Source: Candidatus Wolfebacteria bacterium RIFCSPLOWO2_01_FULL_38_11
GTDB taxonomy: Bacteria > Patescibacteriota > Minisyncoccia > UBA6257 > UBA9933
DNA length: 40,188 bases
Assembly (NCBI GenBank): GCA_001793825.1
Contig: MGIQ01000001.1
Span: forward strand, 1-40,188
Direction of reading: 5' to 3'
This document shows positions 2,625-25,697 of this stretch, piece by piece. How positions within the stretch are numbered: the first letter of the stretch is position 1; each line of letters begins with the position of its first letter. Under the pieces are notes generated by a model. That model did no database searches. It was not told the origin of the DNA and worked only from the letters and a program-made list of their open reading frames with translations. A program made the position numbers and the translations under genes.

Positions 2625-3961
2625 TGGCGATCTCATGTAAAAAAATTTTTTTAGCCACATTGTCTTTATTGGTTTTTTTTGGAACAATGGCCGTCGTTTT
2701 GGAAGATGTTGAAGCGATGATCGGCTGTTCCACCATTAATTCTTCCCAGATTAGAATTTATAAAACTGCCTGCGCTGACAGTTCTAATATTGTGGCGCGC
2801 AATGTCAACACTAATCAAACAAGTCCGACTTTAACCTGCGTCAGCCCTTATTGGAACAATACCGGCCTGACCGCGCTTTTTAATAATTACAGCAGTTCAG
2901 AGGGCCGGACATTTTGTATAGCTTCTTTATTATCCGGCGTATATCCTTCAATCAATATTAAGGTTAACTCAAATATCTCGGCTTCTTGGAGAATTACCGG
3001 TCCTCAAAATATTTATGATTCCGGCGTTTCCGGAGACTACACAATGCCGCCGGGAACTTACACTATAATTTGGGGCAGCGTCAGTGGTTATAATACTCCT
3101 CCTTCTGAAACCCTAACTGCTACCGCTTCCGGAAGTAACGCTATTATTACTTTTAACGGCAATTATCAGCCGTCTTCTCCACCGCCGCCTTCTGTTTCCT
3201 GCGCGCCGGATAAAACAGTTGCCAATACAGGAGAGATCGTCAGATGGAGCGTTATTCCTCCTTCAAGTTCGCCCGGAATCACTTATTCCTGGTCTGGCAC
3301 TGACGGTCTTTCGGGAAATACTGCGTCAGTTGATAAAATTTATTTTACCAGCGGCGCCAAAAGCGCTTCGGTAAACATAGCGACATTAGGCAGTCTTCGG
3401 CCGGCGACTTATTCCTGCGGAAACGTAAATATTGCTTCTTCGGTCGGCATCGTTAATGTTTCTTCTAATAATTCTTTCGCTTCCTGGACAATCACCGGTC
3501 CTTCAAATAAAACCGGTTCCGGATATTTTGATTCTTACGGCAATATGTCAGCAGGAATCTATACGATTGTCTGGAACTCGGTTTCCGGCTACAATACGCC
3601 AATTTCCGAATCAAAAAATTTAACTGACGGAGAAATAATAAATTTTTCAGGAATTTATAATCCAATAGCATCTGTTGCGCCTCTCTCAGTTTCCTGTTCG
3701 CCGAGCAAGACAAAAATTAAAATCAACGAAACGGTTGTTTGGACTGCTTCGGTAAGCGGCGGGATTTCTCCCTACAGCTATTCTTGGTTTGGCAGCGAGA
3801 GTTTAAGCGGTACGATCAATCCTATTGATAAACTTTATACAACCAGCGGAACTAAAAACGCTTATGTGACTGTCAAGGACAATGACGGACAGCAGTTAAC
3901 ATCCAATTGCGGCACAATAAGCGTTTCAAAAAGTAGTATAATAGAAACTCCTCCTCGTTAA
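2624..3961 (+). CDS. Secreted Ser/Thr-rich surface protein with two Ig-like repeats and two PKD-like modules
   Basis: Signal peptide; two WxITGP..YTIxW.SVSGYNTP repeats alternating with two VSC.P.KT...E.V.W...YSW.G...LSG....DK.Y.TSG.K.A.V modules. Confidence 0.78.
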   Translation: MAISCKKIFLATLSLLVFFGTMAVVLEDVEAMIGCSTINSSQIRIYKTACADSSNIVARNVNTNQTSPTLTCVSPYWNNTGLTALFNNYSSSEGRTFCIASLLSGVYPSINIKVNSNISASWRITGPQNIYDSGVSGDYTMPPGTYTIIWGSVSGYNTPPSETLTATASGSNAIITFNGNYQPSSPPPPSVSCAPDKTVANTGEIVRWSVIPPSSSPGITYSWSGTDGLSGNTASVDKIYFTSGAKSASVNIATLGSLRPATYSCGNVNIASSVGIVNVSSNNSFASWTITGPSNKTGSGYFDSYGNMSAGIYTIVWNSVSGYNTPISESKNLTDGEIINFSGIYNPIASVAPLSVSCSPSKTKIKINETVVWTASVSGGISPYSYSWFGSESLSGTINPIDKLYTTSGTKNAYVTVKDNDGQQLTSNCGTISVSKSSIIETPPR

Positions 3962-22210: not shown

Positions 22211-22240
22211 GATAATTTTTGCGCCAGAGTAGCTCAATGG

Positions 22241-22347
22241 TCCCCCACCCATTATTATGCCACCCTAGCTCAATGGCAGAGCAATACTTTTGTAAAGTAG
22301 AGGTTCGGGGTTCAACTCCCCGGGGTGGCTCAAAAATGGGTGGGGGA
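22241..22347 (+). mobile_element. tRNA-carrying mini-insert with 13-bp perfect IRs
   Basis: TCCCCCACCCATT (22241-22253) / AATGGGTGGGGGA (22335-22347) enclosing tRNA-Thr(UGU). Confidence 0.65.
22259..22330 (+). tRNA. tRNA-Thr(UGU), nested
   Basis: GCCACCC/GGGTGGC-T acceptor; TACT-TT TGT AA-AGTA; CGGGG-TTCAACT-CCCCG. Confidence 0.92.
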
Positions 22348-22376
22348 TAAAGCGAAAGTTGGCTGGCTCGCAATAT

Positions 22377-22448: not shown

Positions 22449-22513
22449 CAAATTTTTTTTCAAAGGAAAAAAAATTTGCCCCGAAGAAGCGAAGCGAAAG
22501 CGGGGCTATAAGT

Positions 22514-22780
22514 ATGTATTTTGTCTACATTTTAAAATCTAAAAGTACAGGCAGACATTATGTTGGCTATACAAATAATCTTCAAAGAAGATTAAAAGAA
22601 CATAACAACGGCAAAACTAGATCATTAGTAAAGTACATACCTCTTGAAATTATTTTAGTAGAAGAGTATAAAATATTAAAAGAAGCAAGAGAAAGAGAAA
22701 AACAAATTAAAAGCTATAAATCGGGCGAAGCATTTAAAAAATTATTAAATTTACAACCCACGCCTTCGGCGGGGTGCTGA
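22514..22780 (+). CDS. Stand-alone GIY-YIG nuclease
   Basis: YFVYIL.S....HYVGYT.NL.RRL.EHN.G, E..A..RE..IK; flanked by GC hairpins at 22478-22506 and 22756-22775. Confidence 0.93.
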   Translation: MYFVYILKSKSTGRHYVGYTNNLQRRLKEHNNGKTRSLVKYIPLEIILVEEYKILKEAREREKQIKSYKSGEAFKKLLNLQPTPSAGC

Positions 22781-23001: not shown

Positions 23002-23067
23002 TATTTTGATATTATATCAAAACATTAATTAGGGAGTTTAGGTAAGTGGCATAACGGCGGTCTCCAA

Positions 23068-23174
23068 CTCAGCACATTTAGTTTAAATGGGAGTGTCGTC
23101 CAATGGCAGGACTCTGGTCTCCAAAACCAGGTATCCAAGTTCGAATCTTGGCATTCCCGCAAAAATGTGCTGGG
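23068..23174 (+). mobile_element. tRNA-carrying mini-insert with 12-bp IRs
   Basis: CTCAGCACATTT (23068-23079) / AAATGTGCTGGG (23163-23174) enclosing tRNA-Trp. Confidence 0.65.
23089..23159 (+). tRNA. tRNA-Trp(CCA), nested
   Basis: GGGAGTG/CATTCCC-G; CTGGT-CT CCA AA-ACCAG; CCAAG-TTCGAAT-CTTGG. Confidence 0.94.
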
Positions 23175-23308
23175 CGATTCCCTCAATTCATTATTCTTAT
23201 TCCCTCCCTAGGTTTTTTGAACTTATTTTCTTTTTCCGAGATTTTATTATTAATTGGAATTAATCCAAACTTTTTATATAATAATTAAAATAAAACAAAC
23301 TTTCAATA

Positions 23309-23977: not shown

Positions 23978-25231
23978 ATGGAACCCGCTCAAAAAATAGC
24001 GAAGATTTTAAGGACTGATAAAGATATTATTGAAAAACTGGCTGAAAAAGCCGAGGCCTTAACTGATAAAGAAAATATTTTGGAAAAAATTGTTAAGGGA
24101 AACGAAGCGCTTATTAAAAATCGCCTTCAGCTTAAAGAATTGGGTTCAAGCATTTCTGCGGAAGAAATTTATAAGGCCTTAATCGATAAAATAAAAGAAG
24201 ACGACCTTCAGCTTTTCAAAGCTCTTGGCAAGCCGTCTTTTATGTTAAAAGAAGATGTTGATTTTGTTTTGGAAAAAGTAAAGGATTTGGTGGTGCCTGC
24301 AGAAGGATTTTTCCTTAAAAAAGAAAAAGCGGTTGAATTTCTGAAAAAAGAACCACCCCAAAAAGTGATTGATTATCTCGGTTATAAAAATGTTGATGAG
24401 TTAATCAGTCGGGAAGATATTTTTGAAATCTTCGCCGCTATAAGAATTTTCGAAGATACTAAATGGCTTAATGATGTTTTCTCAAAACAATATTTATCAT
24501 TAACGCCGAATGATTTCGAAAAAAGAATGATAGAGATGCGGTCACTAAGCCAAAAATGGGTTGGAGTGGCTCAAACCTTTTTAAAGAAAAAATATCAAAA
24601 CATCTCTCATCTGAAAGAACTCGGCTATATTTTTGTGATTCCGGTTGAACTGGGGATGCTGGGAGAGGTGACTAGAATGTTTTCTTTGGCTCTTCATTAC
24701 TTTTTTGAAGTAAAATTCAACTCCGAGCTTTTCGAAAAATTTGCGAGTGAACCAGCTACTTTCGGGAAAAATTTTGCTTCAGTGATTAAAGTGGAAATAA
24801 TTGATAATCGTCCGCCGGAAACCGATAAACTTCGCTGGTTAATTATTCCGAGATATCTGGCGCGATACGATGAAAATGATTGGCGGCTTTTTGAGCCTCA
24901 TATTTCGCCCGAAGCTCTTTATTGGAAAAAGGCGGAAGACGCTTTGGTTAATATCAATAAAGTTTTGAAGGATGTTTATGTTAATTTTCTTTTTTGGCAG
25001 GACCTTGATTGGGTTGGCGATTATTTTAAAACAAAGACCGGCATAGAATCTTTGGTGAGTTTTAATTTAGTTGACGCGATTATGGCCTTAATCAGAGAAA
25101 AGGAACTTGAAAAGTATCTTTATCATCATCAGGAATCTCTTTGGAATAAAATTTTTATCGAATATTTTGGGGAAGAGAAGTTTGAGAAATTAATTAAAGA
25201 AAATTTCATTAAAGGCTATTTTGAAATGTAA
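23978..25231 (+). CDS. Hypothetical protein
   Basis: 417-aa ORF with host-like codon usage; no motif recognised. Confidence 0.8.
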   Translation: MEPAQKIAKILRTDKDIIEKLAEKAEALTDKENILEKIVKGNEALIKNRLQLKELGSSISAEEIYKALIDKIKEDDLQLFKALGKPSFMLKEDVDFVLEKVKDLVVPAEGFFLKKEKAVEFLKKEPPQKVIDYLGYKNVDELISREDIFEIFAAIRIFEDTKWLNDVFSKQYLSLTPNDFEKRMIEMRSLSQKWVGVAQTFLKKKYQNISHLKELGYIFVIPVELGMLGEVTRMFSLALHYFFEVKFNSELFEKFASEPATFGKNFASVIKVEIIDNRPPETDKLRWLIIPRYLARYDENDWRLFEPHISPEALYWKKAEDALVNINKVLKDVYVNFLFWQDLDWVGDYFKTKTGIESLVSFNLVDAIMALIREKELEKYLYHHQESLWNKIFIEYFGEEKFEKLIKENFIKGYFEM

Positions 25232-25240
25232 AAATTTAGT

Positions 25241-25277
25241 AATATAAAATCGCTCCGTTACGGAGCGATTTTATATT
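25241..25277. terminator. Bidirectional terminator
   Basis: AATATAAAATCGCTCCG-tta-CGGAGCGATTTTATATT perfect hairpin. Confidence 0.85.
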
Positions 25278-25370
25278 GAATTATCGGGCTGCCATCCTTC
25301 GCTAAAGCTACGGACTGGCAATCGCCCTTATTTCATTCGGGCTGCCGAGAATTGAACTCGGACCTCGTGC

Positions 25371-25405
25371 CTGCCCCGTAGCGAGCTTCGCTCTGCTACC
25401 GGGGT
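25371..25405 (-). repeat. 35-nt palindromic insert at the 3' edge of the outer tRNA-Pro anticodon loop
   Basis: ACCCCGGTAGCAGAGCGAAGCTCGCTACGGGGCAG (minus) hairpin capped by GCGAAGC. Confidence 0.8.
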
Positions 25406-25412
25406 TCCCAAA

Positions 25413-25529
25413 CCCCCACACTAAAAATTTATTTATCGGAGAGCCGAGAATCGAACTCGGACCTCGTGTTCCCAAAACACGTATACTACCACTATACTAC
25501 TCTCCGTTTAATTTTAGTGCGGGGCTAAC
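25413..25529 (-). mobile_element. tRNA-carrying mini-insert with 13-bp IRs
   Basis: CCCCACACTAAAA (25414-25426) / TTTTAGTGCGGGG (25512-25524) enclosing tRNA-Pro. Confidence 0.7.
25436..25506 (-). tRNA. tRNA-Pro(UGG), nested
   Basis: Minus strand CGGAGAG/CTCTCCG-A; CGTGT-TT TGG GA-ACACG; CCGAG-TTCGATT-CTCGG. Confidence 0.94.
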
Positions 25530-25625
25530 GCACGTATTACTACCACTATACTACAGCCCGCTTTTGGTATTGAAATTTTAAGCCAAAAAAATTATATTGT
25601 AAACACGTATTTGAATGAATAAATT

Positions 25626-25697
25626 GCCCTTGTAGCTCAATGGATAGAGCAGTGCTCTTCTAAGGCATTGATGCGGGTTCGATTCCTGCCGAGGGCA
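25626..25697 (+). tRNA. tRNA-Arg(UCU)
   Basis: GCCCTTG/CGAGGGC-A; GTGCT-CT TCT AA-GGCAT; GGTTCGATTCC. Confidence 0.94.

Follow-up and report, generated by a model that had tools for sequence, protein, structure and literature searches.

Integrative elements enter transfer RNA (tRNA) genes and restore the broken gene with a tRNA segment of their own, duplicating the attachment (att) site in the process. Repeats of the miniature inverted-repeat transposable element (MITE) and repetitive extragenic palindromic (REP) types are small, have no open reading frame (ORF), end in inverted repeats, and are present in many copies that share their termini. Further comparisons are offered by systems described in the literature. 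In archaea, multi-intron, split, and permuted tRNA genes are processed at bulge-helix-bulge structures by EndA and RtcB (PMC4090602, PMC3218864, PMC3978253). In bacteria, the anticodon loops of tRNA genes may be interrupted by group I introns, often made mobile by homing endonucleases (10.1101/2020.01.27.920355), while the ribosomal RNA (rRNA) genes of the candidate phyla radiation (CPR) carry short (<200 bp), ORF-less inserts at stem-loops, with GIY-YIG proteins reported to be encoded by some of those that belong to neither the group I nor the group II introns (PMC11270868). Phage T4 has a free-standing GIY-YIG homing endonuclease, SegB, amongst its tRNA genes (PMC2330249). The subject of this report is a tRNA-Pro(UGG) gene contained within a second tRNA-Pro(UGG) gene, an arrangement called here a nest, at positions 25337-25560 (minus strand) of a 40,188-nucleotide stretch of DNA (the window) from Candidatus Wolfebacteria bacterium RIFCSPLOWO2_01_FULL_38_11. 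The nest is probably the product of a disrupt-and-replace cassette, in which the inner tRNA is the working one and the outer halves are co-transcribed with it as relics. The class to which the cassette would belong recurs in this bacterial order, its members breaking a tRNA gene and bringing a substitute for it. None of the systems just described combines a helix-armed, ORF-less insert with a complete replacement tRNA of the same anticodon and a nested relic.

The genome carrying the window will be called G000, the window being its contig C1. It consists of 540,729 bp in 23 contigs, is 96% complete, and has a G+C content of 37-38%. Other G numbers refer to the genomes of relatives, of which 60 were searched with the 224-nt nest as the query, and L numbers refer to the relatives' loci that were fetched, 49 of which were inspected. 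Reading the strand and slicing it by coordinates divides the nest, from 25560 down to 25337, into five pieces of 31 + 117 + 7 + 35 + 34 nt. In the order of transcription, the pieces and their surroundings are:

25575-25603, minus strand: putative sigma-70-like promoter, TTTACA-17 nt-TAAAAT (10/12 matches in a consensus scan), aligning with the upstream region of the G014 gene.
25530-25560, minus strand: outer 5' half (31 nt), with the acceptor 5' strand, a D arm with one extra A, and the anticodon-stem 5' strand CGTGC.
25413-25529, minus strand: insert 1 (117 nt), a complete tRNA-Pro(UGG) enclosed by a 13-bp helix.
25436-25506, minus strand: inner tRNA-Pro(UGG) (71 nt; ARAGORN; Rfam RF00005, 65.3 bits), with acceptor CGGAGAG/CTCTCCG, presumed to be the working gene.
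25406-25412, minus strand: outer anticodon loop TTTGGGA, between inserts 1 and 2; the intact orthologue in G014 has exactly this loop.
25371-25405, minus strand: insert 2 (35 nt), a GC-rich hairpin of a dispersed family, of the form CCCC...stem-loop...ACGGGGCA, often followed by GGC.
25337-25370, minus strand: outer 3' half (34 nt), with the anticodon-stem 3' strand GCACG, variable region, T arm, acceptor 3' strand, and A73.
25284-25336, minus strand: possible relic of older date, comprising a hairpin and, after it, the 10-mer GGCAGCCCGA in a second copy at 25293-25284 (a second CAGCCCGA is found here).
25241-25277, minus strand: terminator-like hairpin with a T tail (17 pairs, loop of 3).

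These boundaries are, to the base, those proposed by the sequence-only reading that first drew attention to the locus. That reading had also claimed that removal of the inserts, which lie between positions 31 and 32 (insert 1) and between 38 and 39 (insert 2) of the outer gene, restores a 72-nt cloverleaf with perfect stems, and so it does: with both inserts deleted in silico by coordinates, ARAGORN calls a 72-nt tRNA-Pro(tgg), and the acceptor (CGGGCTG/CAGCCCG), the anticodon stem (CGTGC/GCACG), and the T stem are all perfect. Its claim of a whole tRNA-Pro(UGG) in the 117-nt insert is upheld by ARAGORN and by the Rfam score given above. Alignment likewise bears out that the two D regions deviate only in an extra A, present in the outer gene, and this A is also the sole difference in length between the inner and outer tRNAs. 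The helix closing insert 1 pairs 25524-25512 with 25426-25414, its 13 bp including one G-T pair.

The similarity of the inner tRNA to the sequence around it is not due to chance. When halves of the inner tRNA were aligned locally with its own flanks, the scores were 41 upstream and 47 downstream, as against 10-12 for controls on the wrong side, and across the 41 tRNA genes of G000 the same measure was mostly <26 unless a nest or a neighbouring tRNA gene was present. The duplex formed by leader and trailer of the inner tRNA, at -23.4 kcal/mol, is also well beyond the G000 median for tRNA genes of -8.45 (n=40). Since a resident promoter-like site lies upstream and a terminator-like hairpin follows the outer 3' half, we infer that the nest would constitute a single transcription unit, running from the one to the other under the resident promoter. 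The outer gene ends with the 10-mer GGCAGCCCGA; the hairpin beyond it, with the repeat of the 10-mer at 25293-25284, may be a 3' scar left by a layer that is older still.

The 224-nt RNA of the nest has a predicted folding energy of -89 kcal/mol (z = -4.4; 0/200 shuffles as good), and the predicted fold forms the outer acceptor, anticodon, and T stems as well as the inner cloverleaf. The outer fold could thus survive in the precursor, as had been suggested, with the refinement that both inserts and the loop stranded between them meet in one four-way junction, which is closed where the CCCC of the 5' arm pairs with the GGGG that ends insert 2. Because this pairing closes both inserts into one junction, ARAGORN, with introns allowed, returns a single 150-nt intron and the anticodon GGG. 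The parse into two separate inserts that bracket the anticodon loop is the right one, because the intact orthologue in G014 reads exactly CGTGC-TTTGGGA-GCACG, precisely the stem-loop-stem that the two-insert model restores.

How does this structure compare with the described systems? As with integrative elements, the insertion would be self-compensating, sequence borne by the element regenerating the tRNA and a displaced fragment being left behind. However, the insert is only 117 nt long, has no integrase, gives rise to a nested rather than a tandem repeat, and has complementary ends that form a hairpin. The arms of the nest may be likened to the terminal inverted repeats of MITE and REP sequences, in that the termini are found in several copies, and the GC-rich hairpins constitute a family, but in contrast to such repeats there is no target-site duplication visible here, a whole tRNA corresponding to the target gene is carried as cargo, and no cognate transposase was identified. 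Archaeal tRNA genes also may have several inserts per gene, at non-canonical positions, and complementary sequences that join halves, and RtcB is encoded by G000. Here, though, the host is a bacterium with no match to EndA, there is no bulge-helix-bulge, the insert holds a tRNA of the same anticodon, and many of the outer copies are degenerate. The nest resembles tRNAs with group I introns in that the anticodon loop of a bacterial tRNA is interrupted, but its inserts, 117 and 35 nt in length, have no ribozyme core, and apart from the inner tRNA itself, Rfam searches of the inserts returned neither a group I intron nor any other family at the gathering score, nor at E <= 1 over 25150-25650.

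The rRNA inserts of CPR bacteria are found in the same kind of organism, and hairpins with the arm motif of the nests lie within the 16S and 23S genes of G000. Unlike the nests, the G000 rRNA hairpins carry no cargo, and the word 'tRNA' has 0 occurrences in PMC11270868. The likeness to SegB lies in a small GIY-YIG gene situated amongst tRNA genes, for which the expected result would be preferential inheritance along with flanking tRNA sequence. Unlike SegB, the insert here is inside the target tRNA gene, with a whole or partial replacement tRNA and relic halves, and the host is cellular. The G000 Pro nest itself, moreover, has no ORF, and cleavage by the GIY-YIG proteins is putative. No description of bacterial tRNA-in-tRNA nests was found in the literature searched, which included term look-ups in PMC11270868 and PMC10714607.

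Relatives indicate which of the two tRNAs is the older inhabitant. In G014 (L036), tRNA-Pro(UGG) is uninterrupted and shares its acceptor and anticodon arm with the joined outer gene, to which it is identical at 63 positions (72 nt for the joined gene vs 71 nt). It adjoins tRNA-Arg(TCT), as in the window, and the region upstream of it, promoter-like site included, can be aligned with what precedes the outer 5' half. That half is the same as the 5' part of the G014 gene except in the D-arm/position-26 region, the site of the extra A. By inspection, an intact gene in G017 (L015) matches the outer halves of a nest in G032. The locus beside tRNA-Arg(TCT) is intact in G014, G017, G020, G030, and G034 and is occupied by differing cassettes in G000, G010, G024, G028, and G032. 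By these comparisons, the outer tRNA-Pro(UGG) is the ancestral resident gene of the locus.

The inner tRNA appears to be an import from another tRNA-Pro sequence lineage. Between it and the outer one there are differences at four base pairs, all of them fully compensated (31:39 and three acceptor pairs), along with the extra A and one T-loop base. Because of the four compensated pairs, and because both acceptor types are found as uninterrupted genes in relatives, the inner gene is not a recent copy of the outer.

Nests are not confined to this locus. About 8 of the 41 tRNA genes in G000 lie beside relic halves of the same tRNA. In addition to the Pro(UGG) nest, these are:

Window 22221-22372, plus strand: tRNA-Thr(UGU) nest; complete tRNA at 22259-22331, 12-bp arms at 22242-22253 and 22335-22346; the outer relic consists of a 5' fragment (22221-22241) and a strongly deleted 3' end (to 22372), still pairing.
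Window 23031-23210, plus strand: tRNA-Trp nest; complete tRNA at 23089-23160, arms at 23068-23079 and 23163-23174; the outer relic retains the 5' part through the anticodon loop (CCA readable), and its 3' part is degenerate.
C16:11100-11324: tRNA-Glu(UUC) nest with relic halves.
C4, about 3713-3910: tRNA-Leu(CAG) nest with relic halves and an insert-2-type hairpin in the relic D loop.
C20:34025-34147: tRNA-Pro(GGG) with a one-sided relic upstream.
C20:14352-14487: tRNA-Gly(CCC) with a one-sided relic upstream and an insert-2-type hairpin in the relic D loop.
C16:1233-1436: tRNA-Arg(CCT) with a one-sided relic upstream.

The leader-trailer duplex of the Thr(UGU) nest (-40 kcal/mol) is the strongest in G000. 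An arm motif, CCC(N)(G)CAC...GTG(C)(N)GGG, flanks the inner Pro, Thr, Trp, and Glu tRNAs, the arms of Leu(CAG) being more distant. The same motif closes the short hairpins in the rRNA genes of G000, at C3:9392-9446 within the 16S gene (placed by Rfam at C3:9187-10751) and at C18:9972-10025 within the 23S gene (from C18:7997 onwards).

In relatives, Pro nests are found in G032 (two loci), G035, G010 (lacking the 3' half), G024 (two loci), G028, and G040, the last belonging to another family, and tRNA-Leu(CAA) nests are found in G029 and G032. The Pro nests have at least four arm types, located at 31/32, at about 37/38, at 26/27, and inside the anticodon. Over all the nests seen, the targets of insertion include the D loop, 26/27, the anticodon loop, and the T loop, and so are not specific to the anticodon arm. 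Inner and outer anticodons agree in 12/12 of the nests readable by eye, leaving out an unreadable Ala nest in G022. G000 and G040, despite belonging to different families, agree in arm type, in the positions of the two inserts, and in having hairpin 2. The sequence-only reading had advised a search for relatives with differing numbers of inserts, and that search thus yielded an uninterrupted gene in G014 and both insert positions in G040. A further locus, L031 (G023:C5, about 1810-1985), has a complete tRNA-Pro(GGG), after which come a sequence resembling an arm, a hairpin, and the 3' half of a tRNA, its CCA encoded. There is no 5' half upstream, making it the mirror image of the one-sided relic on C20 of G000.

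The relative ages of cassette and host were gauged from one pair of nests, the type-B nests of G032 and G035, rather than from the G000 cassette. In this pair, the arms plus inner tRNA differ in 3/98 columns (3%) and the stretch after the 3' arm in 3/36, whereas the outer halves differ by 16-22% (8/37 in the 5' half, 5/32 in the 3' half). All of the stem changes in the outer halves are compensated, with no pair broken, which argues that the outer genes diverged as working tRNAs. The cassette is much younger. Such a step in divergence would fit horizontal spread of the cassette among resident alleles that differ from one another, perhaps accompanied by co-conversion of the neighbouring sequence.

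The outer copies may be arranged in a series of increasing decay. The outer copy of the G000 Pro nest is intact apart from its inserts. Those of G040 and G028 each have one mismatch in the acceptor or T stem, and that of G010 is missing its 3' half. Those of G024 and G032:C5 lack the anticodon-stem 5' strand and have palindromes in the T loop, and the outer copies of the Thr, Trp, and Leu nests of G000 have undergone heavy deletion. All of the ordinary tRNA genes of G000 (41/41) are free of such inserts, and every interrupted tRNA copy seen has a complete gene of the same anticodon inside it or beside it. The confinement of inserts to copies with a complete partner is the pattern expected if the inserts cannot be removed from the RNA. 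No interrupted tRNA standing alone was found in G000 by ARAGORN (introns to 1500 nt) or by Rfam tRNA searches of the whole genome at E <= 10. Some tRNAs, amongst them tRNA-Asn(GTT), tRNA-Val(TAC), and a third CAT tRNA, were not detected by ARAGORN, even with introns allowed, or by Rfam amongst the 41 tRNA genes of the G000 assembly, where runs of N in the contigs may hide them.

Insert 2 is a member of a dispersed family of GC hairpins. The 11-mer ACGGGGCAGGC from its 3' side is present in G000 in 5 copies, against 0.03 expected, and many relatives have matches of 88-94% to the insert. About half of the listed copies of the family lie, by reading, in relic tRNA pieces, beside tRNA genes, or just upstream of a GIY-YIG ORF. 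These tallies made use of motif counts in place of a strict regular expression for symmetric hairpins, which overlooked copies with bulges. Palindromes of other types are found in relic halves as well. Loci L033, L034, L035, L045, and L049 (from G032, G024, and G020) have perfect palindromes of 16-20 nt in T or D loops, for example CCTGCC...GGCAGG and TCCGCCAG...CTGGCGGA, and one T-loop site is occupied by different palindromes in G024 and in G032.

How might a cassette reach its target? A nuclease associated with tRNA genes points to events at the level of DNA. At 22514-22780 (plus strand), the window has an 88-aa GIY-YIG ORF, 65 nt 3' of tRNA-Thr(GGT) and directly after a hairpin of the insert 2 family (about 22477-22510). 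G032 has an 88-aa GIY-YIG ORF (55.8 bits) between a relic 5' fragment of tRNA-Phe with GC hairpins and a complete tRNA-Phe, two genes away from the G032 Pro nest in the same tRNA cluster. The two proteins are homologous, with 37% identity (E = 5e-18). The family is matched in 50/61 genomes, with up to 9 copies per genome, some of which have internal stops. Amongst the 30 best-scoring GIY-YIG loci, that of G000 included, 17 have a tRNA gene within 300 nt, representing many tRNA identities. The density of tRNA genes leads to a chance estimate of about 5%. In about 10 of these 17, a copy of the 5' or 3' part of the tRNA lies beyond the ORF (three were checked by eye).

The favoured explanation for these observations runs as follows. 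An element associated with a nuclease would cut or enter a tRNA gene, bringing with it the tRNA sequence that keeps the cell alive. The longer members of the class would be those that hold a small GIY-YIG gene between a relic half and a complete tRNA, and later degeneration of the ORF would produce helix-armed, ORF-less nests such as the Pro nest of G000. In the case of that nest, a cassette without an ORF, with complementary ends and a complete tRNA-Pro(UGG) of the other lineage, would have entered between positions 31 and 32. Hairpin repeats would then have built up in the dead halves. A 35-nt hairpin of the dispersed family sits between 38 and 39. The inner tRNA would be transcribed from the resident promoter, with the outer halves as a structured leader and trailer, and ordinary end-processing enzymes would release it from the long precursor, perhaps with the help of the closing helix. 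We infer, then, that a nuclease may mobilise the cassettes, that the ORF-less nest would derive from an element so mobilised, and that the outer gene presumably gives no mature tRNA.

A number of observations weigh against this explanation. Judged against the intact anticodon arm of G014, neither insert boundary has a target-site duplication or direct repeat, and there is no nuclease ORF within 25337-25560. No near-identical second copy of the G000 Pro cassette was found in the 60 relatives with the 224-nt query, nor was any trustworthy empty or single-insert allele of the nest found amongst the contigs of four DNA runs (X2, X4, X8, X9). The connection between GIY-YIG proteins and movement of the cassette is one of association. 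The outer Pro gene of G000 is nearly perfect, with all of its stems intact and one extra A, and judged by its sequence it may still function. Between G000 and G040, the inner and outer anticodons have changed together (UGG vs CGG), something that would not be predicted for a dead gene undergoing simple decay. One of the pairs in the closing helix is G-T, and between the same two genomes the helix has undergone one compensated change, T-A to C-G. These last two features would fit selection at the level of RNA, although they would also be explained if selection acted on how the inner tRNA is processed. Finally, two secondary hairpins of the outer 3' part are common to G032 and G035, so that independent insertion requires the hairpins to travel with the cassette.

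Some of the same observations would be natural if the outer gene were a two-intron tRNA that releases a second tRNA, one of two possibilities raised by the sequence-only reading. A protein endonuclease would cut out both inserts and an enzyme such as RtcB would religate the ends, so that one 224-nt transcript would give two tRNA-Pro(UGG), the inner released by the first intron. Consistent with this are the canonical 72-nt tRNA-Pro restored by removal of the inserts, the predicted fold, in which the outer acceptor, anticodon, and T stems persist and both inserts lie in one closed domain, the wobble and compensated pairs of the closing helix, and the compensation of every outer-stem difference between G032 and G035. 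It was advised that a splicing endonuclease or RtcB be sought. RtcB is encoded by G000 (C23:34211-35557, 557 bits) and also by G040 and G028, whose nests are well preserved, but the EndA catalytic domain (tRNA_int_endo, PF01974) has 0 matches in G000 at E <= 0.001, in a search whose control was positive in 4 archaea. Nor does RtcB go along with nests. It is matched in 15/61 genomes and unmatched in nest-bearing G032 (99% complete), G024 (100%), G010 (98%), and G029 (96%). As a marker of nests it does not discriminate, being matched in only 3 of the approximately 14 genomes in which nests were seen. Neither the minimum free energy nor the centroid fold, nor inspection of the sequence, revealed a bulge-helix-bulge at the junctions of exon and insert. 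Above the anticodon stem there is a 5-nt/3-nt internal loop and then the four-way junction, with no offset bulges, and no group I core was found. Also against introns, the insert positions and arm types vary between genera at the same locus, many outer copies are unable to give a tRNA, ordinary tRNA genes are free of such inserts while interrupted copies always have a complete partner of the same anticodon, and in G032 and G035 the cassette is far less diverged than the outer halves. A two-intron tRNA is therefore improbable. It is equally doubtful that an outer tRNA is still made through the removal, by a protein endonuclease and RtcB, of helix-closed inserts of a non-group-I kind, the first of them itself a tRNA gene. 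The other possibility raised, a double hit by hairpin elements leaving a pseudogene, comes close to the disrupt-and-replace cassette favoured here. It falls short in that insert 1 is a helix-armed tRNA cassette and the anticodon arm is not a specific target.

Perhaps no mobile element is needed. Errors of replication or repair mediated by palindromes might duplicate a tRNA into its own anticodon loop, with hairpins as by-products and without movement between genomes. The agreement of inner and outer anticodons in all 12 readable nests would then be expected, the insert's lack of a transposase or integrase would be no puzzle, and at some GIY-YIG loci the repeat is local, direct, and exact and takes in the flank downstream (in G027, for instance, over 53 nt). 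However, local rearrangement is unlikely, in view of the inner and outer tRNAs being of different acceptor lineages, four compensated pairs apart, and of the step in divergence between cassette and outer halves in G032 and G035, which argues for import. Alternatively, the outer halves may have been retained for a function, forming a clamp of tRNA-like shape that would guide RNase P or 3' processing, or help to keep the inner tRNA stable. The nest is a unit from promoter to terminator, the outer acceptor strands remain largely complementary even in the strongly deleted Thr, Trp, and Leu nests of G000, and at the Pro(GGG) locus of the C20 type, G000 and G014 have identical leader arms and different relic halves. 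But most tRNA genes of G000 manage without a clamp, as the weak median duplex attests, relatives have the same tRNA without flanking halves, and some relics are one-sided. The clamp is the least probable of the explanations considered, and very unlikely in itself.

Three narrower ideas were rejected. Duplication of an att site by an integrase does not suit a 117-nt insert with no ORF or recombinase, whose halves are in nested order with no direct repeat at the far end. A role for the arms as paired uptake signals would call for an abundance of arm words, which exceed expectation by just about 2.6-fold (12 vs 4.6). As for a trans-split tRNA, a 3' partner for the Pro(GGG) 5' half, with the complement of the arm and a second CAGCCCG acceptor, was sought, and none was found.

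If the disrupt-and-replace explanation is true, then ultra-small bacteria harbour selfish DNA that owes its survival to disrupting a tRNA gene, essential and present once, while supplying the replacement, and about a fifth of the tRNA loci in G000 would be the layered scars of such events. This bears on the turnover of tRNA genes and their horizontal spread in streamlined genomes, and on what the many small GIY-YIG genes of these bacteria do. It bears also on annotation, as split halves and relics laden with hairpins mislead tRNA finders and intron predictors. The locus is, besides, a clean test case for protein-based splicing of tRNA in bacteria, the outer gene being intact but for its inserts and RtcB being present. 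If the outer tRNA should prove to be spliced, Bacteria would have their first example of tRNA splicing that depends on proteins.

The nest is reproduced in contigs of public DNA runs. In DNA run X4, one contig spans 25369-25656 with 0 differences, and in X2, contig pieces cover 25128-25397, 25373-25491, and 25479-25653, also with 0 differences. Joints in contigs of the DNA runs that skip part of the nest (for example, from 25366 to 25538) were considered as empty alleles and rejected; their short sides are 20-37 nt, and similarity between inner and outer tRNAs or the presence of other organisms explains them. One related contig from X2 does lack the extra A at 25537, yet it has 10 further differences. 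A search of public sequencing runs for the stretch represented by the window returned DNA runs, from groundwater and soil metagenomes, and no RNA run; the genes of the window include members of the usual bacterial housekeeping set: GroEL, TyrRS, HisRS, and Pth.

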